DNA from: an uncultured Acidobacteriota bacterium
Lineage (GTDB): Bacteria; Acidobacteriota; Thermoanaerobaculia; Multivoradales; UBA5704
DNA: 64,000 nucleotides
Direction: 5' to 3'
Assembly (NCBI GenBank): GCA_963770895.1
Contig: CAVYRF010000002.1
Span: forward strand, 4,544,001-4,608,000
Positions 4,991 through 41,080 of this stretch are shown here, in pieces (positions within the stretch are counted from its first letter, which is position 1; every line of letters starts with the position of its first letter). The notes beneath the pieces were generated by a model that saw only the letters and a list, made by a program, of their open reading frames with translations, was not told the origin of the DNA and ran no database searches. The position numbers and the translations under genes were made by a program.

Positions 4991-5007
4991 CCGGACGGGC
5001 GGGAAAT

Positions 5008-5036
5008 TTGACCCGGGCGATAGCCCCGCGTACAGT
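5008..5036 (+). promoter_or_regulatory. Putative sigma70 promoter
   Basis: TTGACC-17 nt-TACAGT upstream of the rodZ-like gene. Confidence 0.55.
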
Positions 5037-5059
5037 TACAACCGTTTTGTGCGAGAGCC

Positions 5060-6343
5060 GTGCCTAGACGACAGAGATTTCCACCGCACCAGACCCACCT
5101 CGAGGGAGTGCCCAATTTGGAGGCGCGCCCGCCCGCGGTAGGTGTCTCCGGTGACGATGGCGAAGAGCTGTCGCCGCCGTCCGACGCCGCCGGGCCGCTG
5201 GGGGTCGCCGGTGCGCCGGGCTCGCCCCACCCGACACCCGCCGCCACATCCGCTTCCTCCTCCCACCCCGGCTCACTCCCACCGACCCAGCTGCCGTTGG
5301 CCCCCGTAGCGCCGGTCGCCTCGCTGCCGTCACTGCCGCCTCCGGCGGCCGCGACGTCGATGGCAGCGGGGGCGCCGACGCCGATCGGGCCGGCGATGCC
5401 GGGCGCCGGGCCGCGGCGCACCCTGCTGCGGCCGCCGCCTTGGGACAAGAGCGCCGACGTGGACGCCGGCGCCTCCTTCGGGGGCTGGCTGCGGCGGCAG
5501 CGCGAAGCGCGCCAGATCGGCCTGCGCGAGATCGCGGAGCGCACCAAGATCAGCCTGCGCTACCTCGAAGCCATGGAAGAGGACCGCTTCGAAGTGCTGC
5601 CGGCGCCGGTCTTCGCCAAGGGTTTCCTGCGCGAATACGCCCGCTACGTCGGGCTGTCGCCGGACGAGGTGGTCAACCACTGGCTGTCGTCGGTGCAGGC
5701 CGCCCAGGGCAGCGACGACGCGGCGGCCGGCCACCATGCCGGCGCGGCCCATCCGGCGCACGCCGCCAAGACCGGCAAGCTGAAGAGCCGCGCGGCGCGC
5801 GCCGCCGCGGCGACCCCGCGCCCGGCGCCGGCCGGCCACGGCCTGTCCGTCAGCCCGGCCGCGCGGTCGTTCCCGCGCTGGCTGGGCCTGCTGCTGGGCG
5901 TCGTCGTGCTGCTGGGACTGGTGGCGGTCCTCGCCTACCTGTCGGAGGGCTGGCGCCAGCGCCGCACCCTCCGCGGCGAAGACCGGCCGGCCATCGTGGC
6001 GCCGGTCGCGCAGGTCGTGCCGCCGCCGCCCGCCGCGGCGGCGCCGCCCAGCGTGCCGCTTGAAGTGGTGGTCGATTTCAACCAGGAGTGCTGGGTCGAA
6101 GCGGTGGTGGACGGCGGCAGCCGGCGCGCCGAAATGCGCGAACAGGGCGAATCGATGCAGCTGGAAGCCAAGCAGAGCGTGGTCTTCGCCAAGCTGGGCA
6201 ATGCCGCGGCGGTGGAAATCCAGGTCAACGGCTACCCCTACCCGCTGGACAAGAAGCGGGGCGAAGTGCTGCACGACCTGAAGATCGACCTGGACACGGT
6301 GCGGGCGTTAAAGGCGAAGAAAGAGCAGCCCGAGGGGCATTGA
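5060..6343 (+). CDS. rodZ: RodZ-like HTH membrane protein
   Basis: HTH 'FGGWLRRQREARQIGLREIAERTKISLRYLEAMEEDRFEVLPAPVFAKGFLREYARYVGL', one TM helix, C-terminal 'CWVEAVVDG...LGNAAAVEIQVNG' domain. Start uncertain. Confidence 0.8.
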   Translation: MPRRQRFPPHQTHLEGVPNLEARPPAVGVSGDDGEELSPPSDAAGPLGVAGAPGSPHPTPAATSASSSHPGSLPPTQLPLAPVAPVASLPSLPPPAAATSMAAGAPTPIGPAMPGAGPRRTLLRPPPWDKSADVDAGASFGGWLRRQREARQIGLREIAERTKISLRYLEAMEEDRFEVLPAPVFAKGFLREYARYVGLSPDEVVNHWLSSVQAAQGSDDAAAGHHAGAAHPAHAAKTGKLKSRAARAAAATPRPAPAGHGLSVSPAARSFPRWLGLLLGVVVLLGLVAVLAYLSEGWRQRRTLRGEDRPAIVAPVAQVVPPPPAAAAPPSVPLEVVVDFNQECWVEAVVDGGSRRAEMREQGESMQLEAKQSVVFAKLGNAAAVEIQVNGYPYPLDKKRGEVLHDLKIDLDTVRALKAKKEQPEGH

Positions 6344-29596: not shown

Positions 29597-29977
29597 TCAG
29601 TCGCGGGCGCGAAACTGTTCGAAAAGAAGGTGAGCGGAATCGCGTGCTGCGGTCGGTGCGGTGATGGTGAGCCGAACGCTGTCCGCTTCGTTGTCGATCT
29701 GGAAGGTGAAGAACGGACAGCATTGCGCTTCGCGCTGCACCAGCTGGCGCACCTTCTCCGCTGCTTCAGCCGCATAGGTCAGCTCAAGCCGCAGGTCCTG
29801 GTGTCGATCGGCGCGCAGCGCCCTGCGGTTGAGATCGGCAATCCAGCGGACGCGCTCCTGATAGTCGGCCGCCCCCAGGCTGCACGCGATGGGTGGGCGG
29901 TGGGGTGGCTGAGGTTCCGTGCCGGACCCTGTTCCCGGCGGCGTGATTTCATTGTCGATCATCGAGAATTCGCCCAT
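29597..29977 (-). CDS. Hypothetical protein ('PIACSL...E..CCPFF.F' type, Cys-containing)
   Basis: Motifs PIACSL and EAQCCPFFTF. Start at 29977 or 29962. Confidence 0.75.
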   Translation of the reverse strand: MGEFSMIDNEITPPGTGSGTEPQPPHRPPIACSLGAADYQERVRWIADLNRRALRADRHQDLRLELTYAAEAAEKVRQLVQREAQCCPFFTFQIDNEADSVRLTITAPTAARDSAHLLFEQFRARD

Positions 29978-32169
29978 TATTTTGTCCTCATGTTGTCAAA
30001 GTCCAATTCGCCGGTTGCAGCATGTGCGGTGCGTAGCTCGAAGTCGGCGAAGTCAAAGGTCGCAGTGCCGTTGTCGGCTTCGACGAAGATGCCCGCAAAC
30101 CCTGAGCGCCAGCTGGTTTTTATGGGAAAGCGATCGACTTGCTGGTCATTGATATAGGTGAAGATCTCATCACCTTTGCCTATGACGACCAAAGCATTGG
30201 TCCTCCCAGGTGGATGTATGGCCGTGCTGACAGTGAAGGGGCGGCGCAGGGTGTACTTCGGCCCGCCATCCGACACCACGCTGGAGACCTTGCCTGTGCT
30301 CAGTGCCACTTTGTAGACGTGACGGAAATCGTGACGCCAAAAGAACAGGCCGCCGACGGCACCTTGATTCCCTACGATCTGCGTAAGGTTCACTCTCAGA
30401 TAGAAATCGTCGCCTATCGCTGGAAGCGCCAAAGCCGTATCGTGTGCATCGCGATCTTTGGTTATAGAGAATCGCAGCACCCCGTCCGCAACGGTCGAAG
30501 ACACATAGGTGTTGTTCACCAGGTCCCATCCAGCGGCGAAGCCCTTCGCCAAGCCAGCGGCATCGGGAAATGAGAGCTGCCAGGACCGGGCTTCGGCCAG
30601 GAGCGCCTGCGCCGTTTCCTTGGTCCGTGCATTCTGCGACGCACTCGACGTTTGCGGCCCCGGCAGTTCCCCTTCGCGTTGTGATACCGCGTTGGTGCGT
30701 GGCGGCGGGGGTAGACCCTTGGCAAGACTGGCATCCTTGGTCCCTGCATTTTGCGACGTACTCGCCGTCAGCGGCCTTGCCGGTGCATCCTTTCGTTGTG
30801 ATTTCTCCCCGGTGCCTGGCAGTGGCAGAGTCCCGGCCGGACTGGCATCCGTGGGCGCGGCAAGCAATCTGGCCACTGGCGGTGAAAACCAGGAAACCAC
30901 AGTTATCAGGCCCATGGAAGCGGCCCAGACGACGATGCCGAAGATCAGGCATTTGAGCATCACCTGTGCAGCCTGGGTCGGAGATTGTTTTGCTCTCAAG
31001 TAGGTCAGACGGTCGGCGGGGAAGAGATCGAGCGGTGGACGGATCGGTGGGTGTTTCGCGGCGGCTGGTGCCGGAGCTTGAGTGGGCGTTGCGCCCGCCG
31101 ACGCCGGCGAGGTGGTGGGTACATTTACGGTCAAGGCTACGGCATCTGTGGCTGCCGCAGCCACCCCAGCGGACGTTGCTTCGGCGGTCTTTGCGGCGGC
31201 GGTTGTCGCGCCGGCCAGCACCTCGGCGGCGGCGGTGGCGACCCGCTTGCTGTCGTCGTTCAGGGCGTGCTGGGCGGCGATGCGCGCGGCGTCGCGGAGG
31301 GTGGGGTCGGGGCCGAGCAGGTAGCGGGGGAGCTCGCGGAGGGCGCCTTCGCGCACGCCGGCGAGCGAGCTGTCCAGGGCCTGGCGCAGCTCGACGGGCA
31401 GATCGGGAAGCGGCGGGCGCCAGCCGGGGCGCTGGGCGATGACCAGGGTGCCCTGCTGCTGGTAGGACCAGCGGCGGGGGTTCTGGCGCGGGTTCTCCTG
31501 CACCACCTGTTTGTGGACGTAGTTGTAGAGCTCGTCCAGGGTGACCTGACCGTCGTTGTCCAGGTCGGCTTCGCCGGTCTCCAGGCCGTGGATGAGGTGG
31601 CGGGTGAAGACGGACATGGTGAGCGCTTGGCCGGCGGCGACGACGTCTGCGGGCTCCCAGGCGCGTTCGGTGGAGCTGCTGGCGGTCAGGACGTAGCGGC
31701 CCAGGCCGTTTCCTTCGAAGGTTGTCGCGGGTATGGCGGATTGGCCCTTGGCGCCACGTTCGAAGGCGCCGCTGTAGCAGCAGTCGAGGATCAGGATCTG
31801 CCGGCGGGAGCGGCATTGGTCCATTTCGGCGGTGACGAAGCCGGCGGGGATGGCGGTGGCGGACAGAAAGTCGCTTTCGGTGTCCCGCACCGCCAGGTGC
31901 AGGGCGCCGCGGTCGTCGAGCAGGCCGTGGCCGGTGAAGTAGAGCAGCAGCAGGTCGTCGGGCGTGCGCTTGGCGAAGAAGCGCGCGACCTCGCGGCGGA
32001 CCTTGTCGCTGGCGGCATCCAGGATCGGCGTGACCTGATCGAAGCCGCCGATCGCCGGGTCGCCGAGCACCTTGGTCAGCGCGGCGAGGTCGCCCGGCGC
32101 CGCGCGCAGGGGTGGCAGGGGAGGCTCGAAGAGGCTGCTGCCGACGAGCAGGGCGAGCCGCTGGCTCAA
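29977..32169 (-). CDS. Caspase-family (C14) protease, EACC1-associated type, with TM helix and C-terminal jelly-roll (DUF1080/LamG-like) domain
   Basis: RLALLVG, LYFTGHG (catalytic His), ILDCCYSG (catalytic Cys), SVFTRHL..GL.TGEADLDNDGQVTLDELY, TM 'LIFGIVVWAASMGLITVVSWF'. TTG start overlaps the upstream stop (TTGA). Confidence 0.88.
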   Translation of the reverse strand: MSQRLALLVGSSLFEPPLPPLRAAPGDLAALTKVLGDPAIGGFDQVTPILDAASDKVRREVARFFAKRTPDDLLLLYFTGHGLLDDRGALHLAVRDTESDFLSATAIPAGFVTAEMDQCRSRRQILILDCCYSGAFERGAKGQSAIPATTFEGNGLGRYVLTASSSTERAWEPADVVAAGQALTMSVFTRHLIHGLETGEADLDNDGQVTLDELYNYVHKQVVQENPRQNPRRWSYQQQGTLVIAQRPGWRPPLPDLPVELRQALDSSLAGVREGALRELPRYLLGPDPTLRDAARIAAQHALNDDSKRVATAAAEVLAGATTAAAKTAEATSAGVAAAATDAVALTVNVPTTSPASAGATPTQAPAPAAAKHPPIRPPLDLFPADRLTYLRAKQSPTQAAQVMLKCLIFGIVVWAASMGLITVVSWFSPPVARLLAAPTDASPAGTLPLPGTGEKSQRKDAPARPLTASTSQNAGTKDASLAKGLPPPPRTNAVSQREGELPGPQTSSASQNARTKETAQALLAEARSWQLSFPDAAGLAKGFAAGWDLVNNTYVSSTVADGVLRFSITKDRDAHDTALALPAIGDDFYLRVNLTQIVGNQGAVGGLFFWRHDFRHVYKVALSTGKVSSVVSDGGPKYTLRRPFTVSTAIHPPGRTNALVVIGKGDEIFTYINDQQVDRFPIKTSWRSGFAGIFVEADNGTATFDFADFELRTAHAATGELDFDNMRTK
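30617..30802. repeat. Degenerate ~69-nt direct repeat (period 117 nt) in the caspase extracytoplasmic linker
   Basis: tccttggtccgtgcattctgcgacgcactcg... versus tccttggtccctgcattttgcgacgtactcg...; peptides SASQNARTK and STSQNAGTK. Confidence 0.75.
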
Positions 32170-32585
32170 GGCTCCTTCTTGCCCGCGGCGGGTTTGGCGG
32201 CGGGCGGACCGGCTTGCAGGTTGGCCAGCAGGTCGTTGAGCTGCTGGTGGCTGAATTCGCCTCGCGGCAGGTCGACGGCGAAGGAGCTTTTGCCGCTGGT
32301 CCACTTGATCTTGAGGGTCTTGCCGTCGCCGCGCTTGAGCCAGCTTTGCAGGAAGGTGACGACGCTGGTGAGCACGCCGGGGAGGGCGGCCACGACCAGC
32401 TCGCCGACGGCCAGCAGGTCGCCCTTGGCGCCCCTGGGTGCGGTGCCGCCGGTAGCGAGGCGAGCTTCGACCGGCAGCTGGCGCAGCTCGACCAGCAGGC
32501 TGCGCGTCAGGACGTCGACCTGCTCGGCGTCCAGCCCGTCCCCGCCTATGTGTACGACCAGCTCGACCGGCTCGGTGCCTTCCAC
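32166..32585 (-). CDS. Effector-associated constant component EACC1-like protein
   Basis: 'D.EQVD.LTRSLL.ELRQL.VEA......APRGAKGD.LAVGELVVA....LTSVVTFLQSWL.R'. GAGGT RBS before GTG. Coupled to the caspase gene. Confidence 0.8.
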   Translation of the reverse strand: MEGTEPVELVVHIGGDGLDAEQVDVLTRSLLVELRQLPVEARLATGGTAPRGAKGDLLAVGELVVAALPGVLTSVVTFLQSWLKRGDGKTLKIKWTSGKSSFAVDLPRGEFSHQQLNDLLANLQAGPPAAKPAAGKKEP

Positions 32586-32741
32586 GATGGATACCTCGCT
32601 TGGTGTGCTTTTGGTGATTCTACCAGTTGCGCAGAACCCAAGAGACGTAGGCGGCGGCGTGCAGCTCTTGCGCTGCAGCGCCGGGCACACTAGCCTGAAA
32701 GGTGGTCGCGCAGGCCGCTTCGGCCGTTGCCGCCCGATGCT

Positions 32742-33656
32742 ATGAAGCCGCAGAGCCGCATTCGCCCACCCGCGGTCGCCGGGCAGTTCTATCCCGGCGA
32801 TGCCGCCGTGCTGCGCGCGACGGTCCAGGCGCTGTTGGCCGGTCCGGGCGGCCGCGCCGCGCAGCCGGTGGTGGCGGCGGCGCGGGCAGGTGCCGGCGAC
32901 CAGGGCGGCGACACTGCCGCGGCTGGCGCTGGCGTTCCAGGCCGCCCATCCCCCAAGGCGATCATCGCCCCCCATGCCGGCTACGCGTACTCCGGTCCCA
33001 TCGCCGGCTCGGCCTTCCGGGCTTTGGCTCCGGGCACTGCCGGCGCGGGTGCGGGCGGGGTGCGGCGGGTGGTGGTGATCGGTCCGGCGCACCGGGTGGC
33101 GATCCGCGGTCTGGCGCTGCCCGATGCGGCGGGGTTTGCGACGCCGCTGGGGGAGGTGCCGCTGGACGCGGAGGCGTGCGAGCGGCTGGCCGGGCTGCCG
33201 CAGGTTGCGGTGCGGTCCGACGCGCACCGCGACGAGCATGCGCTGGAGGTCGAGCTGCCGTTTCTGCAGGTGTTGCTCGGCGACTTTCGGCTGGTGCCGC
33301 TGGTCGTGGGGCAGGCATCGGGCGCACAGGTGGCGGAGGCGCTGGAGCTGGTGTGGGGCGACGACCAGACCGTCGTGGTCGTCAGCTCCGACCTGTCGCA
33401 CTTCCTGCCGGCGGCGACCGCCGAGCGCGTCGACCGGCAGACCGCGGCGCGGATCGCGGCGCTGGCAGGACCTTTGGCACCCGACCAGGCGTGCGGCGCG
33501 ATTCCGATCAACGGCCTGTTGATCGTGGCCCGCCGCCGCGCGCTGGCGGCCCGCCAGCTGGACCTGCGCCATTCCGGCGACACCTCGGGGGATCGTTCCC
33601 GCGTCGTCGGCTACGGCGCCTGGGCTTTCGAGCCTCAAAATCATCATGCCGCCTGA
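32742..33656 (+). CDS. amrB: AmmeMemoRadiSam system protein B (MEMO1-like)
   Basis: RPPAVAGQFYP, PHAGYAYSG, GPAH, EHALEVELPFLQ, SSDLSH, CG, VVGYGA. Confidence 0.93.
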   Translation: MKPQSRIRPPAVAGQFYPGDAAVLRATVQALLAGPGGRAAQPVVAAARAGAGDQGGDTAAAGAGVPGRPSPKAIIAPHAGYAYSGPIAGSAFRALAPGTAGAGAGGVRRVVVIGPAHRVAIRGLALPDAAGFATPLGEVPLDAEACERLAGLPQVAVRSDAHRDEHALEVELPFLQVLLGDFRLVPLVVGQASGAQVAEALELVWGDDQTVVVVSSDLSHFLPAATAERVDRQTAARIAALAGPLAPDQACGAIPINGLLIVARRRALAARQLDLRHSGDTSGDRSRVVGYGAWAFEPQNHHAA

Positions 33657-34353
33657 AACTCACATCGGTCGCGATCCGGATGCGGCGCCGGCCGCCGCGG
33701 CAGCCGAACGCGGGCGCCTGCTGTTGGCGCTGGCGCGCCGGGCGATCGAGGAGGCATTGGGCCTGGCTGCCGCGGCCAACGGAGAGCCGGCGGCGACGTC
33801 GGCGAGCCCGGCGGTGTCGGCGAGTCCGGAAGCTGGGTCCGGGGGATCGGCAGACTCGGCGGCGTCGGCGGCGTCGGGAGCGCGGCAGGATGACGCATGG
33901 CTGCGCGCGCCGGGGGCTTGTTTTGTGACGCTGATGCATGCGGGACGGTTGCGCGGCTGCATCGGGTCGGTGCGGGCGCGGCGGCCCCTGGGCGAAGACG
34001 TGCGCGCCAATGCGCGGGCGGCGGCGCTGGCGGACCCGCGTTTTCCGCCGCTGGCCGCGCACGAGCTGGCGGCGACGCGGATCGAGGTGTCGCTGCTATC
34101 GGCGCCCGTGCCGCTTTTGGTGCGCGACGAGGCGGAGGCGCTGGCCGCGCTGCGGCCGGGGACGGACGGCGTGATCCTGGAGATGCGCGGCGGGGAGCGC
34201 TCCACCTTCCTGCCGCAGGTGTGGGACAGCTTGCCGTCACCGCGGGAATTCCTTGGCCAGCTGAAGCGCAAGGCCGGGTTGCCGGCCGACTTCTGGTCGG
34301 CGGACCTGCACCTTTTCCGCTACACGGTGATGCATTGGCAAGAGCCGTCGTGA
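33646..34353 (+). CDS. amrA: AmmeMemoRadiSam system protein A (AMMECR1-like)
   Basis: CFVTL, LRGCIG, DPRF, TFLPQVW, LKRKAGL. Confidence 0.93.
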   Translation: MPPETHIGRDPDAAPAAAAAERGRLLLALARRAIEEALGLAAAANGEPAATSASPAVSASPEAGSGGSADSAASAASGARQDDAWLRAPGACFVTLMHAGRLRGCIGSVRARRPLGEDVRANARAAALADPRFPPLAAHELAATRIEVSLLSAPVPLLVRDEAEALAALRPGTDGVILEMRGGERSTFLPQVWDSLPSPREFLGQLKRKAGLPADFWSADLHLFRYTVMHWQEPS

Positions 34354-34384
34354 TCGCGGCGCGCGATCGAATGGATTTTGGGTC

Positions 34385-34412
34385 TTGACATCGGCCAAAC
34401 GCTTGCTATGAT
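34385..34412 (+). promoter_or_regulatory. Strong sigma70 promoter with extended -10
   Basis: TTGACA-16 nt-TATGAT with TGn immediately before the -10. Confidence 0.85.
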
Positions 34413-34478
34413 CCGCGTCCTTGCACGGTTGGGCTCGATCTTCAAGATCGCCAACCTGACCGTGACGGAGCCGACACG

Positions 34479-34625
34479 ATGAGAGCTCACCAGCCAATCG
34501 ATACGACGGATCGGATTCGCGGCGCCGCCAAACGCGGCGCGCGGGGATCGGATTGCGTCGGACAGCAGCGCTCGCTTTCCGCCCGCCGGGTGGAAGCCGG
34601 GCGCCATGGGGAGCTCGTCTCGTAA
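34479..34625 (+). CDS. Putative 48-aa leader peptide (MRAHQPIDTTDRIRGAAKRGARGSDCVGQQRSLSARRVEAGRHGELVS)
   Basis: GGAG RBS 8 nt before the ATG. Stop lies 26 nt before the terminator stem and overlaps the antiterminator arm. Confidence 0.5.
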   Translation: MRAHQPIDTTDRIRGAAKRGARGSDCVGQQRSLSARRVEAGRHGELVS

Positions 34626-34651
34626 AGGTTTCGCACGCAAAGTGCGGTGCT

Positions 34652-34694
34652 AAAGACCTTCCGGGATGCCCTCCCGGAAGGTCTTTTTGCTTTT
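34652..34694 (+). terminator. Intrinsic terminator / attenuator
   Basis: 15-bp stem AAAGACCTTCCGGGA/TCCCGGAAGGTCTTT, 5-nt loop, followed by TTGCTTTT. Confidence 0.9.
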
Positions 34695-34857
34695 GGAGCG
34701 TCCGCTGCGCGGCACCTGGGACAGCGCATCGGCGTATCTTGCGATCGGGCGCTCCGGCGGCAAACTGAACAGAGGCTTCGCTTCGGGTGGTGCGCGCGCC
34801 TCGCGCAAGCGATGGGTGGCGCGTATTCCAAAACCGGTTCGTAGAGCGCAGCACCCC

Positions 34858-34928
34858 GTGTGGCTAGCTCAATGGATAGAGCGACGGGCGTGGCCCGGAT
34901 GTTGGAGGTTCGAATCCTCCGCCACACG
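34858..34928 (+). ncRNA. tRNA-like element 1 (intact acceptor/D/T arms, shrunken anticodon loop, no CCA)
   Basis: GTGTGGC/GCCACAC acceptor, TAGCTCAATGGATAGAGC D arm, CGGGC-GTG-GCCCG arm, GGAGG-TTCGAAT-CCTCC T arm. Confidence 0.8.
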
Positions 34929-34944
34929 ACAGGCATGGAACCTG

Positions 34945-35017
34945 TCATGGCTAGCTCAATGGTTAGAGCACCGAGCTGATAACTCGGACGTTGGAGGTTC
35001 GAATCCTCCGCCAACCG
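34945..35017 (+). ncRNA. tRNA-like element 2 (Ile GAT anticodon arm, broken acceptor stem, no CCA)
   Basis: TAGCTCAATGGTTAGAGC D arm, CCGAG-CTGATAA-CTCGG anticodon arm, identical T arm. Only TGGC/GCCA (4 bp) of the acceptor stem pairs. Confidence 0.8.
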
Positions 35018-35357
35018 TCAATGGTTGTGTAGCAAGGTCGTGAGGGAGGGCGGCCGGGATCTGCCCGCCGCCGCCGGCCCGCGCCGGAGCGCCGTCTGCT
35101 CCGCCGCGGTGTGCGGTGACGGCAGCATGCGAAGGCGCCTTGCGGTGCCGCTGCCCTGGTCCGTCCAAACGCCGGTTGCTGCCGCGGGTAGCGCATGGCG
35201 GCATGCATCCGGCGGGGACGGCGGGTCAGGAGCGGTGCTCCGCGCCGGAGGTGCGGCGCCTGGCCGCACCTCCCTCTCGACCCCTGGCCTGGCGCGCGCT
35301 CACCGCGGGCGCGTCTTGCCGACGAAGGTGATGTGCGCCGTGGTAAGGAGGTGAGAG

Positions 35358-36458
35358 ATGTGGTGCAAGCTGGTGAAGGTGGCCGCCTACGAGCGCGGCC
35401 TGGTGTTTCGCGATGGTGCGCTGGCGCGCCTGCTGGCGCCGGGTTGGCATTGGCTGTGGGAGCCGTCCGGCGCGGTGCGATTTGAAAAGGTTTCGGTGCG
35501 GGAGCCGTGGGTGCGGCACCGCGACCTGGAGGTGATCGCCAGGTCGGCGGCGCTGGCCGACGAGGCGCTGATCCTGGACCTCAAGGACCACGAGCGGGCG
35601 CTGGTGTGGATCGACGGCCGTCTGGCCGCGGTCTGCGCGCCGGGTCTGTACGTGCTGTGGACGGCGTTTCACGAGGTGCACGTCGAGCGCATCGACGCGC
35701 GGCCGATCCGCTTCGAGCATGCCCAGCTGGCGCTGGTGCTGGCGGCCGACGGCAAGGACCTGCTGGAGTCGCTGGTGGTGCCGGCAGGCTGGGCCGGCCT
35801 GGTGTTCCAGGACGGCCGGCACGCCGCGACGCTCGCGGCGGGCACCTACGCGTTCTGGCGCCGGCTGGCGCAGGTCAAGTTCCAGCTGGTCGACCTGCGT
35901 GAGCAGTCGGTGGACGTGCCGGGCCAGGAGATCATGACCGCCGACCGCGTCACGCTGCGGCTCAACGCGGTGGTGTCGTTCCGGGTTGTCGACCCGGTCA
36001 AGGCGCTCTTGGAGGTGGACGGTTATGACAAGGCGCTGTACCGGCACGCACAGCTGGCGCTGCGGGCGGCAATCGGCACCCGCGAGCTGGACGTGCTGCT
36101 GGCGGAGAAGGACGCGCTGGCGGAAACCCTGGCGGTCGCGCTACGGCAGGGCGTCGCCGCGTTCGGCCTCGAGCTGCGCGCGTTCGGCATCCGTGACGTG
36201 ATCCTGCCGGGTGAGATGAAGGAGCTGCTCAACCGGGTGACGGCGGCCCGCAAGGTGGCCGAGGCCGCGCTGATCACGCGGCGTGAGGAGACCGCGGCGA
36301 TCCGTTCGCAGGCCAACACGGCGCGTATCTTCGAGTCGAACGCGACCCTGATGCGTCTGCGCGAGCTGGAGGTGCTGGAGAAGGTGGCCGGCACGGCCAA
36401 GCTGTCCGTCGTCCTTGGCGACGGCGGCCTGACCGACCGGGTGGTGAAGCTGCTTTGA
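35358..36458 (+). CDS. Slipin family (SPFH/band 7) protein
   Basis: Three N-terminal 'ERGL.F.DG...L.PG.Y/H' repeats, 'GQEIMTADRVTLRLN', 'DVILPGEMK', 'RREETAA.RS.ANTA', 'RLRELE.LE'. Strong RBS TAAGGAGGT. Confidence 0.92.
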   Translation: MWCKLVKVAAYERGLVFRDGALARLLAPGWHWLWEPSGAVRFEKVSVREPWVRHRDLEVIARSAALADEALILDLKDHERALVWIDGRLAAVCAPGLYVLWTAFHEVHVERIDARPIRFEHAQLALVLAADGKDLLESLVVPAGWAGLVFQDGRHAATLAAGTYAFWRRLAQVKFQLVDLREQSVDVPGQEIMTADRVTLRLNAVVSFRVVDPVKALLEVDGYDKALYRHAQLALRAAIGTRELDVLLAEKDALAETLAVALRQGVAAFGLELRAFGIRDVILPGEMKELLNRVTAARKVAEAALITRREETAAIRSQANTARIFESNATLMRLRELEVLEKVAGTAKLSVVLGDGGLTDRVVKLL

Positions 36459-36522
36459 CCGCCCGCCGGCCAGCCCGCGGCAGTTGCGCGGCGTCATTCC
36501 AGACGCTGGTGGCGTGTGCCAC

Positions 36523-36550
36523 CGGCGCGCGGGGTGGCGCCGCTTTTTTT
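36523..36550 (+). terminator. Intrinsic terminator after the slipin gene
   Basis: CGGCGC/GCGCCG stem followed by C and T7. Confidence 0.65.
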
Positions 36551-36570
36551 GCCTTTTGATGCCCTGCCGA

Positions 36571-37851
36571 TCAGTAGAGCGGGCTGAAGAACACCGTCAG
36601 CAGCTCGCCCAGGCGGGCTTTCCAACCGCGGTGGCTCCAGCGTTCGTAGGTAACCTCGCGGCACTGGCCCAGATCGTTGGTAAACATCGCCTCGGCTTCG
36701 CCGGCAAAGCCGCGGTCGTAGACGGTGATGCTCTCTTCGGCGTTTTTGGCCATCGAGCGGGCGTCCATGTTGATCGATCCGACGATGGTGAACATGCCGT
36801 CGAACACGGCGGTCTTGCTGTGCATCATGGTGTGCAGGTATTCGTAGACCTTGACGCCGCCTTTCAGCAGCTCGCCGTGCGAAGCGCGCGAGGCCATGCG
36901 CACCAGCGCCACGTCGTTGTGTTTGCCGGGGATGATGATGCGCACGTCGACGCCGCGCTTCACCGCCTGGATGAGGGCGGCGCGCATCTGCACGTCGGGC
37001 AGGAAATAGGCGTTTTGAATGTGGATCGACTTTACGGCCGATTGGATCGCCAGGTAATACAGCATCTTGGCCAGCGACGACGCGTCGCCCCGCGCCACCT
37101 TGATCGCCTGCGCCGGAAGGTCGCCGGCCGGCTCGATCGGCGGATAGAAGTTGTCGCCGGCCAGGATCTCGCCCGTCGTATAGGTCCAGTCCTCGGCGAA
37201 GATCGCCTGCATCTGCGCCGCGGTGGGGCCGGTCACCTCCACCTCGGTGTCGCGCCATTCGTTGGCGTTGCGGGCGTTGCCCAGCCAGCGCGCTTCGATG
37301 CCGAGCCCGCCGGTGAAGCAGACGGTGCCGTCCACCACCAGGATCTTGCGATGGGTGCGCTGGCCGAGCCGCTGGATGTTCCACAGCCGCACCGGGTGGT
37401 AGATCCGGAAGTTGACGCCGGCCGCCTTCATGCGGTCGGCCAGCGCTCCCGGATGGCCGGCAAAGCCGTCGACCAGAACCCGCACTTCGACGCCGCGCTG
37501 GGCGGCGCCCACCACCGCGTCGGTGATCAGGCTGCCAGCCGCGTTGTCGCTGAAGATGTACGACTCGAGGTTGACCGTATGGCGCGCCGCCGCGATCGCC
37601 CGCACCATGGCGGGGAACACCCCGTCGCCGTTCTGCAACAGCTGGATGCGGTTGCCTTTGACCATGGCGTTGCCGAAGCCGTCGAGCGAGCGGCGGAACG
37701 CGGGATCGTCGACCGGCGCCGGGTGATTGAGATGAAAGGTCTGCCGCTTGGTCGCCGTGGTGGTGCAACCTGTGCCGAGCGCCAGCAGGGCCGCGGCGAG
37801 CAGGCACCCGGCGATCGTCCGGGACGGGCCGGTCGGTTGCGCCGCGCTCAT
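36571..37851 (-). CDS. cls: Cardiolipin synthase / phospholipase D family protein
   Basis: Two HKD motifs (HRKILVVDG, HSKTAVFDG), WRDT, NAYFLP, GSINMD. Confidence 0.92.
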   Translation of the reverse strand: MSAAQPTGPSRTIAGCLLAAALLALGTGCTTTATKRQTFHLNHPAPVDDPAFRRSLDGFGNAMVKGNRIQLLQNGDGVFPAMVRAIAAARHTVNLESYIFSDNAAGSLITDAVVGAAQRGVEVRVLVDGFAGHPGALADRMKAAGVNFRIYHPVRLWNIQRLGQRTHRKILVVDGTVCFTGGLGIEARWLGNARNANEWRDTEVEVTGPTAAQMQAIFAEDWTYTTGEILAGDNFYPPIEPAGDLPAQAIKVARGDASSLAKMLYYLAIQSAVKSIHIQNAYFLPDVQMRAALIQAVKRGVDVRIIIPGKHNDVALVRMASRASHGELLKGGVKVYEYLHTMMHSKTAVFDGMFTIVGSINMDARSMAKNAEESITVYDRGFAGEAEAMFTNDLGQCREVTYERWSHRGWKARLGELLTVFFSPLY

Positions 37852-38507
37852 TGGGGGTGACCCTCGGGGTCGAGCAGCGTTGCCAGGAGCTTTTCGTGCT
37901 CGGGAAAGCTGTGACGGTAGTCGTCGCGGCCGCGCGCGATCACGTCGCGCGCCTCGTCGCGGCCGTAGGTGCCGGCGATCTCCACCTTTTCGCGCCCGCC
38001 GGGGGCCAGCTTGTAGGTCAGGAAATAGTGGGTCAGCCGCTCGACCAGCGCGGGCGGCAGGTCCGCCAGCTCTTGGACGCCGCCGAACGTCACGTCGTCT
38101 TCGAGGACGGCGACGACCTTGTCGTCGGCCTCCCCCGTATCGATCACCCGCAGGCCGCCGATCGGGATCGCCTGGAGCAGGAAGTCGCCGTGCGAGAACG
38201 CCCGTTCCGACAGCACGCAGATGTCGAGCGGATCGCCGTCGCCCCCCAGGTCCTGGCGGCCGGTGCGCTGGCGCGCCAGCGCCGCCAGCGATTCCCCTGA
38301 ATAGGTCTGGGGGACGAACCCGTAGAGCGTCGGGCAGACATTGGAAAACTGCTGCGGGCGATCGATCTTCAGGTGACCGGTCGCCTTGTCGATCTCGTAC
38401 TTGACCGCGTCCGCGGGCACGATTTCGACGTAGACCGTCACCACCGCCGGCGCCTGCCTGCCGATCGGCACGCCGTGCCAGGGATGGGTCTTGAACAGCC
38501 GCTGCAT
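37848..38507 (-). CDS. ppa: Inorganic pyrophosphatase (family I)
   Basis: HPWHG, VKYEIDK, YGFVPQT, DGDPLDI, EADDK. The real start is internal to the long track ORF. Confidence 0.93.
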   Translation of the reverse strand: MQRLFKTHPWHGVPIGRQAPAVVTVYVEIVPADAVKYEIDKATGHLKIDRPQQFSNVCPTLYGFVPQTYSGESLAALARQRTGRQDLGGDGDPLDICVLSERAFSHGDFLLQAIPIGGLRVIDTGEADDKVVAVLEDDVTFGGVQELADLPPALVERLTHYFLTYKLAPGGREKVEIAGTYGRDEARDVIARGRDDYRHSFPEHEKLLATLLDPEGHPQ

Positions 38508-38509
38508 CC

Positions 38510-40609
38510 TCAACTCCCAGGCGCTGCGTCGCGCATCGTGACGTGGGTGCTCTGCTTGCCGTGCGATTCTAACAGCGGTGCCGGGTCGGCGCCCGCGCCG
38601 CCCTGGCTTTCGAACCATTTGCGGGCGCCGACCAGCTTCCACGAACGTTGGCCCTGGCGCAGCTGCATGCCGACGCTGAGCGGTCCGTAGGCGGCGTACA
38701 GGACGCCGTCGTCGCGGCCGCCGGCAAAGCGCAGCCGGGCGCGGATGCTGGCCTTGCCGGCGGTCATCGTCAGCCCGTCGATGGCGATCGAGCCCCTGGC
38801 CATCGCCAGTTCGCCGCTGGCGTCGATCGGGTGCAGGTCGAGCAGGCGGTCGAGCCACCCGAGCAGCGGCTTGGGCCGCGGCGCGAACAGCGCCAGGAGC
38901 GGCCGCGTGTCGCTCAGCGTGCTGCGCATGCGCGCCTGCAGCTCCACCTGCCCGGTGCGCGCGACCGACAGGTAGTCGAGATGCACCCGCGCCCACCAGC
39001 CGCCGCCGCCCCTGCCGCCGGCGCCGCGATTGCGGTCGTCCCCGTTGCCGCCGTCGCCGTCCAGGCGCTGGACGTCGCCCAGCGCCACGTCGCTTTCGGT
39101 GAGCAGCAGCCGCCGCTGCAACAGCAGGGCGCGAAACCGGCTCCGCGCCTGAAGATTGCCGCGCAGGTGGGCGCCCGGCAGCAGGACCTCGACGGCGCGG
39201 CCGCGCAGGTCGATGCCGCCCGCCGCCTCCCACGCCGGCGCCGCGGCGCGCAGGTTGGCGCTCACCACGCCGGTGCCGCCGGCGAGCTGCACGCCGGCGC
39301 CGCGCGGCAGGTTGCGGTTGTAGGAGCTGAAGTCGCTGATCGCCGTCGGCGGCAGGTCGATCGCCACTGCCGCCGGCACCGGCAGGGCGGCGACACGCAG
39401 GTCGCGGGTGGCGATCTCGACGCGCAGGCCGCGCCCCTGCGCACGCTTCTCGCCGGCGCCTTCCCGGCCCAGCTGGAACTGGTCGAACGCCGCGACCAGC
39501 CTGCCCACCGGTCCGCCGCGGTCCGCCGCCACGTCCCAGGTCACCTGGCATCGCCCCGTCGCCACGTCGTCGAGCAGCCGCGCGGTCACGCTGCCCGGCC
39601 GTGCCGCCACGTGGGCACCGGGCAGGTACATGCCGTGGCGTACGTCCAGGGAGGCCTCGAAGGTGCCGGCGTCGCCGCCCAGCTCGATCCATGGCACCGC
39701 GGCCACGTACGGTGCGAGAAAGCCCAGGCTCTGCATGCGGCCGCGCAGGCGCACGCTGCCGCTTGCCAGCGGCAGGAAGCCGCCCTGCAAGTTGGTGGGG
39801 TCGACGGGCGGCAGCTCGAAGCGCACCGCTCCGGTCATGCCGTCGAGCAGCGGCCGGTCGCTCACCTGGAGCGCGCCCCAGCGCAGGTCGGCCGTCGCGC
39901 TGTCGAGCGTGAACCGGTGGGCGTTCTCCATGTCGAAGCCGCCCTGGACGCGCGCCTGGCCGGCGAAGCGATAGCCGGCGATCCACACCTCCCGCACCCG
40001 CTCCAGCGTCACCCCCGCCAGGCGGATGCGCCACCGTCCCCGCTCGTCCTCCGGCCCCGCGGGCGGCGGGGGAGCCGTCGTATTGACCAGGCCGGGAATG
40101 ACCGGCACCTGCGGCGGCGGCTCGGCGGGATGCCACGCCAGATCCGGGCGCGGGCCGGCGCCGGCGGCGGAGGAGGCGATATCGCCGTGAGGGGAGGCCG
40201 CTTCGCCGGCGCCGCCGGGCTTGCCGGGAGCGCCGGCCCCAGGGGAGGCGGTCTGCTCCGGCCGCCGGCGCAGGCGAAAGGCGACGCCGCTGGCGGTCAG
40301 CGAGCTGGCGGCCAGCTCGCGCCGCAGCAGCCGCGGCAGGTCGATGGCGATCGTCGCCGAGTCGATGCCCGCCCACCACTGCGAAGTGCGCGCCTGCCCG
40401 ACGAGCTCTATGCGCTCCAGGTGGACCACGCCCGGCAGCACCGTCCAGGCGGAGGCATAGTGCAGGACGAAGCGGTCCGGGTGCCGGTTGATCAGCCGCA
40501 GCAGCCACCCCGACCGCAGCAGGACGTTGGCCGCCGCCAGGTAGCCGCCGAGGCAGACGGCGAGGATCGCGGCCCCGGTGAGGAGCAGCTTGCGCGTTGA
40601 GCTTTTCAT
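38510..40609 (-). CDS. Hypothetical membrane-anchored beta-rich protein (possibly AsmA-like)
   Basis: N-terminal TM (LLLTGAAILAVCLGGYLAAANV) and a beta-strand-rich body. First gene of an apparent operon with ppa and cls. Confidence 0.7.
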   Translation of the reverse strand: MKSSTRKLLLTGAAILAVCLGGYLAAANVLLRSGWLLRLINRHPDRFVLHYASAWTVLPGVVHLERIELVGQARTSQWWAGIDSATIAIDLPRLLRRELAASSLTASGVAFRLRRRPEQTASPGAGAPGKPGGAGEAASPHGDIASSAAGAGPRPDLAWHPAEPPPQVPVIPGLVNTTAPPPPAGPEDERGRWRIRLAGVTLERVREVWIAGYRFAGQARVQGGFDMENAHRFTLDSATADLRWGALQVSDRPLLDGMTGAVRFELPPVDPTNLQGGFLPLASGSVRLRGRMQSLGFLAPYVAAVPWIELGGDAGTFEASLDVRHGMYLPGAHVAARPGSVTARLLDDVATGRCQVTWDVAADRGGPVGRLVAAFDQFQLGREGAGEKRAQGRGLRVEIATRDLRVAALPVPAAVAIDLPPTAISDFSSYNRNLPRGAGVQLAGGTGVVSANLRAAAPAWEAAGGIDLRGRAVEVLLPGAHLRGNLQARSRFRALLLQRRLLLTESDVALGDVQRLDGDGGNGDDRNRGAGGRGGGGWWARVHLDYLSVARTGQVELQARMRSTLSDTRPLLALFAPRPKPLLGWLDRLLDLHPIDASGELAMARGSIAIDGLTMTAGKASIRARLRFAGGRDDGVLYAAYGPLSVGMQLRQGQRSWKLVGARKWFESQGGAGADPAPLLESHGKQSTHVTMRDAAPGS

Positions 40610-40650
40610 GTCGGCGGGCGGATCGCTGTCAGGCTGTCGCCGGCGAACCC

Positions 40651-40666
40651 TGCGAGGCGCGTGCCA
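40651..40666 (-). promoter_or_regulatory. Putative sigma54 promoter
   Basis: Minus strand TGGCACGCGCCTCGCA, GG-N10-GC, about 40 nt upstream of the 40609 start. Confidence 0.55.
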
Positions 40667-40670
40667 GACC

Positions 40671-40686
40671 TGGCACAGGTGTTGCT
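40671..40686 (+). promoter_or_regulatory. Putative sigma54 promoter
   Basis: TGGCACAGGTGTTGCT, near-consensus. Confidence 0.7.
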
Positions 40687-40757
40687 CCATACCGCGGCGT
40701 GTCCACCCGGACACTCGGCCCAGCAGCCAGCCGGTTCACCAAGAAAGGGGTTTTGCG

Positions 40758-40898
40758 ATGCTCTTGATCCTCGCGGTCATCTTGTTTGTTCTCTGGGTGC
40801 TCGGCTTTGTCGCGTTCCACGTGGGAGGCGGCCTGATCCACATCCTGCTGGTGATCGCCATCATCGTGGTCGTGGTGCACCTGCTACGGCGGGTCTAG
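40758..40898 (+). CDS. lmo0937-family small membrane protein
   Basis: MLLILAVILFVLWVLGFVAFHVGGGLIHILLVIAIIVVVVHLLRRV. Confidence 0.9.
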   Translation: MLLILAVILFVLWVLGFVAFHVGGGLIHILLVIAIIVVVVHLLRRV

Positions 40899-41080
40899 CG
40901 AAGAAGAAACAGACCGAATCGATTGCCCGGTGGCGATCGAGCGGCCGCATCCCCGTGGGGGCCCGCGTGGGTGTGGTTGCTCGGTCGCCGCCGTTTTATT
41001 GCCGTTCGCCCTCCTGGCAGCTCCCCGCTTCCCAAACTTGCGCTCCCCGCCGGCGGCGCGCTATGCTCCTATTCGTGACC

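Follow-up and report, generated by a model that had tools for sequence, protein, structure and literature searches.

A Band-7 protein gene and its tRNA-mimic RNA lie behind a candidate ribosome-dependent attenuator in a soil acidobacterium

The operon described here occupies positions 34385 to 36550 of a 64,000-nucleotide stretch of DNA (positions 4,544,001 to 4,608,000 of contig CAVYRF010000002.1, assembly GCA_963770895.1; hereafter the window) from the 8.16-Mb, 95% complete genome of a soil acidobacterium. In our preferred reading, to which we give a probability of about 0.65, the operon is a single transcription unit encoding a Band-7 protein (also called SPFH protein or slipin) together with its cognate tRNA-mimic RNA, and the leader region ahead of them is a ribosome-dependent attenuator, which would probably switch the pair on when ribosomes falter. 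Operons of this kind are known from a single in-silico prediction, and the one here is a stand-alone variant with a duplicated mimic and a candidate attenuator as its gate. All of its elements lie on the plus strand, and the order of promoter, leader open reading frame (ORF), terminator, tRNA mimic, structured RNA, and slipin gene is repeated in acidobacterial loci. Because related loci repeat this order, the arrangement is far beyond chance. A preliminary description of the same DNA had named a promoter, a leader ORF, a terminator, two defective tRNA-like units, a slipin gene with a strong ribosome-binding site, and a final terminator. Every one of these elements was found at the place given for it, and the accompanying claim that they form one unit is borne out by the part order conserved across acidobacterial loci.

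The unit begins with a sigma-70-type promoter (34385 to 34412; TTGACA-16-TATGAT, 11 of 12 matches, with TG before the -10 element), which is the only sigma-70-like site in positions 33500 to 37500, where shuffled sequences contain 0.2 on average. Several aligned acidobacterial loci, for example, L060, L026, L055, L065, and L070, carry a TTGACA / TATxxT promoter at the equivalent place. An independent internal slipin promoter, which the preliminary description had offered as a finding that would speak against its account, was not predicted: there is no promoter-like site between 34412 and the slipin gene and no sigma-70-like site after 34412. The promoter is followed by a leader ORF of 48 codons (34479 to 34625), which starts with ATG, has GGAG 9 nt upstream, and ends in a TAA stop codon at 34623 to 34625. 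In 21 loci, the leader ORF has 22 to 63 codons and ends 26 to 44 nt before the 5' arm of the terminator. Of these 21 ORFs, 17 start with ATG or GTG and have a Shine-Dalgarno-like motif ahead of it, 17 end in the stop codon TAG, and 10 have proline as the final residue (counted by eye). Two loci stand outside this count, namely L058, which has no canonical in-frame start, and L073, whose terminator was missed by the pattern used. A correspondence between leader codons and the "anticodon" of the mimic was considered and, by eye, found no support.

After the leader ORF comes an intrinsic terminator (34652 to 34694), made of a 15-pair hairpin (34652 to 34686) with a T run that extends to 34694; the folding energy of the hairpin by itself is -26.1 kcal/mol. 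A CCTTCC...GGAAGG hairpin with a T run stands upstream of slipin in 24 of the 27 acidobacterial loci with enough upstream DNA, and a terminator with a differently spelt stem in L072 brings the total to 25 of 27. The motif is also found in five of five further relatives and in the window; none of the 51 non-acidobacterial loci carries it, and for 47 of these no less than 600 nt of upstream DNA was available. A pattern search of the whole genome (8.16 Mb) found the terminator once, at the operon only, so it is not a dispersed repeat; no regulon was found by this search. In alignment A2, 93% of the cells of the terminator pair, with compensatory change in 9 of 13 pairs. Five terminator-like sites were detected in total, none of them within 34695 to 35357.

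Two candidate antiterminator strands are present in the window, one in the last eight leader codons (34599 to 34614) and one at the stop codon (34625 to 34633), and each can pair with the 5' arm of the terminator. In 20 loci, every 16-nt segment of the 150 nt upstream was scored against the inner 5' arm plus loop. The best partner overlapped the leader stop codon in 11 of the 20, where about 2 are expected from position alone; in those 11, it starts 6 to 10 nt before the stop codon and pairs at -18 to -21 kcal/mol, compared with medians of -6 to -9. In four more loci, the stop-overlapping segment lies 0.8 to 2.8 kcal/mol behind the best. Furthermore, the letters paired between the leader end and the 5' arm covary among loci. 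With its columns fixed in A2, the antiterminator pairs in 78.5% of cells, compared with 33 to 57% when it is slid, and its covariation score was reached by none of 500 shuffles. Within the window, 34599 to 34614 is the best partner of 34657 to 34671 (-15.9 kcal/mol, median -8.8), and folding of the nascent RNA pairs 34625 to 34631 with the outer 5' arm. The leader anatomy fits a ribosome-dependent attenuator, as the preliminary description had proposed, and this anatomy makes induction by translation trouble a reasonable expectation.

We infer that the leader is translated and that read-through is induced by stress. RNA polymerase would start at the strong promoter, and a ribosome would translate the 48-codon leader. 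During normal translation, the ribosome at the leader end would cover the strand complementary to the 5' arm, the terminator would form, and transcription would stop at 34694. If the ribosome stalled or failed to load, for which damaged or scarce tRNA, ribotoxins, and translation inhibitors are possible triggers, the strand would be free to pair with the 5' arm, the terminator would be blocked, and the polymerase would continue into the tRNA-mimic RNA and the Band-7 gene. Smooth translation would therefore favor termination, and stalling or absence of the ribosome would favor read-through. Three acidobacterial loci (L066, L067, and L068) have a tRNA-Leu(CAG) gene between the attenuator terminator and the mimic, and in these the attenuator appears to control a genuine tRNA too.

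Between the terminator and the slipin gene lie 663 nt of non-coding DNA (34695 to 35357) with no convincing gene. The roughly 650 nt of structured non-coding RNA that had been claimed for this region are real, and they are conserved with covariation. They include two tRNA-like units of the b7a type. The first (34856 to 34931) has a 7-pair acceptor stem, normal D and T arms, and a shortened anticodon loop, in which cmscan places four letters compared with six in the model. The second (34943 to 35020) has a 7-nt anticodon-like loop (GAT), has only four of its seven acceptor positions paired, and aligns with the single unit of most relatives. Both exceed the gathering score of the Rfam tRNA model (29), with 51.4 bits at 34858 to 34928 for the first and 54.8 bits at 34948 to 35013 for the second; ARAGORN accepts the first only. 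Besides tRNA, a scan of 33500 to 37500 with Rfam at E <= 1 gave only a below-threshold chance plastid match on the opposite strand, and no curated Rfam Y-RNA family was matched. Duplication of the mimic is not unique to the window, since a locus from the Thermoanaerobaculia (L057:2525-2674) has a tandem pair of mimics, each of which ARAGORN calls Ile (gat).

An alignment of 49 mimic copies (A1) was used to build a covariance model of our own (R1), by which the first unit of the window scores 71.4 bits and the second 77.2 bits. In A1, the D and T arms are nearly invariant, and the anticodon loop differs among copies both in its letters and in its size (about 4 to 9 letters). Pairing holds in 91.7% of the cloverleaf cells, with compensatory change in 16 of 21 pairs, a result reached by none of 500 shuffles. 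Some mimics (for example, L059, L087, L093, L118, L120, and L121) encode CCA one base after the acceptor stem.

The mimic accompanies the slipin gene across a wide range of bacteria. Eight of 40 relatives carry a slipin orthologue (E <= 1e-100), and all eight have a same-strand Rfam tRNA match 230 to 800 nt upstream; ARAGORN called six of the eight mimics, with anticodons that differ or are unreadable. In a scan of one genome per species, the best 80 of 357 relatives were kept. Among these 80, the labels include Acidobacteriota (29 loci), Planctomycetota (32), and Desulfobacterota and allies (11), with Sumerlaeota, Myxococcales, Hydrogenedentales, Krumholzibacteriia, Verrucomicrobia, and Chitinophaga as further labels. 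The tRNA-like genes that ARAGORN finds upstream of slipin lie at a nearly constant distance from it. Of the related loci, 80 have at least 600 nt of upstream DNA; an upstream R1 match of at least 60 bits was found in 69 of them, and 63 of these reach at least 66 bits. R1 is not specific, as the genuine tRNA-Pro of the window scores 62.4 bits and the highest-scoring evident true tRNA reached 64.9. The distance between mimic and slipin has a median of 389 nt and falls between 228 and 567 nt for 61 of the 69 copies. With filters off, the 11 misses include weak remnants at the expected place in L128, L111, L082, and L116 and a 40- to 48-bit match there in L131 and L112; L099, L104, and L130 gave nothing above chance on the plus strand. 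Covariance models of the regions upstream of slipin homologues had been suggested as a check in the preliminary description, and the mimic model R1 has a match in most of these regions. In five Planctomycetota loci (L086, L108, L107, L121, and L090; slipin at 3001), 6 to 17 ordinary-looking same-strand tRNA genes stand directly upstream of the mimic and slipin, and L086 has three further tRNA genes after slipin. In those Planctomycetota, the Band-7 module thus forms part of a tRNA gene array.

Downstream of the second unit lies a structured RNA domain (35036 to 35282), with a long-range closing helix formed by about 35036 to 35055 with 35262 to 35282. RNAalifold found compensatory change in 16 of its 44 pairs, and in 42 of 107 in a larger alignment. 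A search with a sequence profile of the spacer found the corresponding region in 33 upstream stretches, some of them from Planctomycetota and Desulfobacterota. The mimic is here fused to this domain of about 250 nt, whereas ordinary tRNA genes have none. A further conserved block, a 5' stem-loop (34776 to 34845), stands between the terminator and the mimic and has blastn matches in nine loci. RNAalifold folds it into one long hairpin (alignment columns 24 to 85), which is highly conserved in sequence and has few varying pairs. By eye, neither this block nor the stretch from 34710 to 34725 has sigma-54 spacing.

The slipin gene (35358 to 36458) encodes 366 amino acids and is preceded, three bases before its ATG, by the 10-nt Shine-Dalgarno sequence AAGGAGGTGA (35345 to 35354), which is conserved in aligned relatives. 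The protein matches Pfam Band_7 (PF01145; E 1.7e-32) over residues 140 to 311, and the NCBIfam search gave only sub-threshold matches to HflK. Its AlphaFold model has a predicted local distance difference test (pLDDT) score of 86.2, with 93.8 for the N-terminal part alone and 94 for residues 1 to 180. The model consists of five-strand beta repeats at residues 3 to 46, 70 to 113, and 136 to 179, followed by the SPFH domain and a helix (285 to 346); the part with the three repeats (residues 1 to 180) corresponds to 35358 to 35897 in the window. Its best structural match is the SPFH domain of the stomatin of P. horikoshii (Z 17.6, root mean square deviation [rmsd] 1.1 Å, 104 residues). The repeats alone match best the first beta subdomain of SPFH proteins (Z 5.4 to 5.9), and a search with the N-terminal part found no fold covering all three repeats. 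The preliminary description had called the protein membrane-organising, which is not supported: there is no hydrophobic membrane segment (Kyte-Doolittle means over 19 residues reach at most 1.45, at residue 82), and the model has no N-terminal helix. The protein was compared with the membrane-anchored stomatin/slipin type, and the hydrophobic N-terminal segment of that type was not found in it. The slipin is accordingly predicted to be soluble.

The model also resembles the eukaryotic vault particle, which consists of major vault protein (MVP), vault RNA, and the TROVE protein TEP1. Beta-sheet repeats, an SPFH-like "shoulder," a long helix, and a paired small structured RNA are common to both. 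The whole slipin model aligns with MVP residues 323 to 721 at Z 10.3 to 12.2 (rmsd 6.6 to 8.8 Å, 223 to 252 residues). The slipin repeats alone match the MVP repeats at a Z of only 3.2 to 3.7, below their matches to SPFH beta subdomains, and none of 30 slipin family members matched the Pfam Vault families at E <= 1. As judged from the model, the vault likeness is one of architecture only.

A tblastn search with the rtc genes of L100 (Trichlorobacter thiogenes) found at least one of rtcR, rtcA, and rtcB no farther than 3 kb away in 20 of 85 related loci, so that the link between slipin and RtcB neighborhoods drawn in the preliminary description was right. In L100, a divergent rtcR is followed by the RNA, slipin, rtcA, and rtcB, and in three loci rtcB stands between mimic and slipin. 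The acidobacterial pair (25 of 27 loci and the window) lacks rtcR and is preceded instead by the conserved promoter, leader ORF, and terminator. It had also been stated that neither RtcB nor Ro60/TROVE is present. This holds for the window, which has no rtc gene in positions 30000 to 41000, but not for the genome with respect to RtcB, which is encoded on another contig (C1:1230955-1232289) among ArsR-type, AHSA1-like, and DUF899 genes, with no Band-7 gene adjacent. No TROVE/Ro60 gene (PF05731) was found in the 95% complete genome, and control genomes gave the expected matches. One acidobacterial-type attenuator was seen next to a repair gene: in L128 (2400 to 5461), the attenuator terminator is followed by a 13.5-bit mimic remnant, slipin (2989 to 4137), and, directly downstream, an RtcB gene (4232 to 5461), which ties the attenuator form to repair enzymes.

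The preliminary description regarded the operon as an undescribed system. That view is not upheld, since the operon corresponds to the pair of a Band-7 protein and a b7a-tRNA, which was reportedly predicted in silico, as a scaffold of RtcB RNA-repair operons, by Burroughs and Aravind in Nucleic Acids Research in 2016. As in that system, the Band-7 gene directly follows a predicted RNA resembling tRNA, and this protein subfamily occurs with its RNA in rtcR/rtcA/rtcB operons in the 20 of 85 loci mentioned above. The window differs from it in that RtcB, RtcA, and RtcR are not adjacent, the mimic is duplicated and joined to the domain of about 250 nt, and a candidate leader-peptide attenuator precedes the pair. 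In a later account, the 2016 prediction is linked to RtcB RNA-repair operons, the b7a-tRNA is described as lacking experimental validation as of 2018, and the pair is said to be sometimes exchanged with Ro60/YrlA and is proposed to be functionally interchangeable with it (10.1101/312249). We found no publication that connects slipin or Band-7 to a leader peptide or to attenuation, and attenuator control of the pair seems to be new.

Other known systems share single features with the operon. In the rsr-yrlBA-rtcBA operon of Salmonella, Ro60 (Rsr) is encoded with the Y RNAs YrlA and YrlB (PMC7790460; 10.1101/312249). Both there and in the Band-7 family, an RNA with a tRNA-like module stands beside a presumed RNA-binding scaffold protein in RNA-repair neighborhoods. 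In the window, by contrast, the protein is of the SPFH and not the TROVE type, the RNA has no Rfam Y-RNA match, and a candidate attenuator stands in place of RtcR and sigma-54. Leader-peptide attenuators, such as trpL and hisL, are well known from amino-acid operons. Other attenuators respond to ribosome-targeting drugs, as reported for bmrCD of Bacillus subtilis (PMC4191407). The window shares with these ribosome-mediated attenuators a promoter, a short ORF, an intrinsic terminator, and a candidate alternative helix that would depend on ribosome position. Its leader differs in having no codon run for one amino acid (by eye), and its output is a tRNA-shaped RNA and an SPFH protein. In Anabaena sp. 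PCC 7120, a study of the trcR mutant places alr0739-alr0740 in the TrcR regulon and reports that alr0740, annotated as slipin family, is up 42-fold and rises together with rtcB and the trn tRNA operon, which antibiotics aimed at translation induce (PMC10272220). Control there is by a transcriptional repressor, and alr0740 is likened to our protein by the slipin annotation only.

Several observations weigh against the joint reading of a single unit under ribosome-dependent attenuation. The leader varies in length between 22 and 63 codons, L058 has no canonical start in frame, and in DNA of 70% G+C content ORFs are common by chance. Inspection of the 21 leader peptides by eye showed no shared run of regulatory codons or of one amino acid, and the signal is therefore probably general translation performance. 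The best partner of the 5' arm lies elsewhere in 9 of the 20 loci, and change on both sides is seen in just four of eight antiterminator pairs, a number reached by 136 of 500 shuffles. In the window, the antiterminator is weaker than in the relatives (-15.9 kcal/mol, or a 7-pair AU-rich helix, against the -26 kcal/mol terminator) and lies inside the last leader codons, not squarely on the stop codon. All counts are from loci related to one another and are not independent. Termination at 34694 and read-through are predicted from sequence alone, the link to repair runs through homology of the pair only with RtcB not adjacent, and binding of the mimic RNA by a soluble Band-7 oligomer is a step that we infer.

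The strength of the terminator and the weakness of the antiterminator would also suit a different arrangement, in which 34385 to 34694 is a self-contained small gene for a micropeptide or small RNA, and the mimic and slipin are transcribed from a promoter of their own in 34695 to 34855, perhaps in the block at 34776 to 34845. Conservation of that block mainly in sequence, with few compensatory changes, would be in keeping with a protein-binding or promoter site. However, the promoter and sigma-54 spacing searches described above gave no sign of a second start, and covariation is seen where the leader end pairs with the terminator arm. The small unit, moreover, accompanies the pair in 25 of 27 acidobacterial loci of differing contexts and occurs nowhere else in the genome, and the tRNA-Leu gene between terminator and mimic in L066 to L068 suggests that the terminator gates whatever follows it. 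We consider two separate units unlikely and retain the single attenuated unit.

The purpose of such a unit could also lie in biological conflict. The mimic would then be a decoy for anticodon nucleases or other tRNA-directed toxins, protected or presented by a Band-7 cage, and not part of a repair scaffold. A decoy under diversifying pressure could look like this RNA, whose tRNA body is constant and whose anticodon loop varies, and the module is patchy, being present in one of nine genomes of the same genus. On the other hand, comparison of the slipin protein with the PADLOC defence families gave no match at E <= 0.01, none of the genes next to the module in the window was identified as a nuclease or toxin, and a decoy and a scaffold are indistinguishable by computation. 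A counter-measure of this kind is, in our judgment, improbable.

It is very unlikely that the units are working tRNAs, that is, spare or specialized decoders with slipin merely as the next gene in a tRNA operon. Their Rfam scores are above the gathering score, the second unit has a normal 7-nt loop, CCA follows the acceptor stem in some family members, and some Planctomycetota have their 6 to 17 ordinary tRNA genes upstream of the same slipin. Against this, homologous copies differ in anticodon, many being reported by ARAGORN as "???", and their loops range from about 4 to 9 letters. At the three outer acceptor pairs, 15 to 26 of the 49 members of A1 lack pairing. In the window, the first unit has the shortened loop, the second has four acceptor pairs, and neither encodes CCA, and the mimic is followed by a conserved structured domain foreign to ordinary tRNA genes. 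Neither a 7-pair acceptor combined with a 7-letter loop nor a kept anticodon identity, as expected of canonical tRNAs, was found.

The operon ends in a terminator (36523 to 36550) with a 6-pair GC hairpin (36523 to 36542) and seven T residues. It faces the end of a convergent PLD-like gene on the minus strand (36571 to 37851). Directly upstream of the operon is a pair of overlapping Memo-like and AMMECR1 genes (32727 to 34353), which are kept together in five relatives (L140 to L144). Just upstream of this pair, a minus-strand ORF of 775 amino acids (29977 to 32304) has an N-terminal caspase domain (Peptidase_C14, E 2.7e-12). Synteny breaks right after AMMECR1, where the operon starts: all five relatives lack slipin and the PLD gene downstream. 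Because these relatives differ downstream, no clean empty site could be drawn from them as insertion boundaries. The slipin of a genome from the same genus is only 66% identical and lies in another genomic context. Although this break and the divergent same-genus copy would suit decayed tRNA genes or attachment-site remnants of a slipin-bearing mobile island, with no function of their own, we regard remnants as extremely unlikely, given full cloverleaves whose D- and T-arm letters are invariant and which persist, with compensatory changes, over at least six phylum-level labels, a fixed distance and strand relative to slipin, and whole tRNA-like units where attachment remnants are normally 3' tRNA fragments.

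For the preferred reading, the link to translation stress is indirect and comes from the rtc association, the attenuator anatomy, and the Anabaena TrcR regulon. A soluble Band-7 oligomer that binds the mimic RNA could form a particle serving as a scaffold or decoy for damaged tRNA. In a fuller and decidedly tentative version, which we think has some chance but is more probably wrong than right, the Band-7 protein and an RNA of about 450 nt, composed of the tRNA mimic and the structured domain, would form a soluble, cage-like ribonucleoprotein, a bacterial counterpart of Ro/Y-RNA particles and, architecturally, of vaults. Its synthesis would be licensed by a sensor of ribosome performance, and it would capture or shield damaged tRNA or act as a decoy for tRNA-cleaving toxins. 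Different lineages would have wired the particle to different alarms of translation damage: cyanobacteria to a repressor, Acidobacteriota to a leader-peptide attenuator, and others to RtcR, which senses tRNA fragments. Unrelated devices (RtcR with sigma-54, the Anabaena repressor, and the leader peptide) are thereby suggested to converge on one output, and such convergence of regulators is an argument for the particle being a response to damaged translation machinery. The attenuator yields a testable prediction of when the pair would be made, on ribosome stalling, and the leader with its terminator would be a compact reporter for finding the inducing stress. Finally, a soluble SPFH protein with extra beta repeats would extend SPFH biology beyond membranes.

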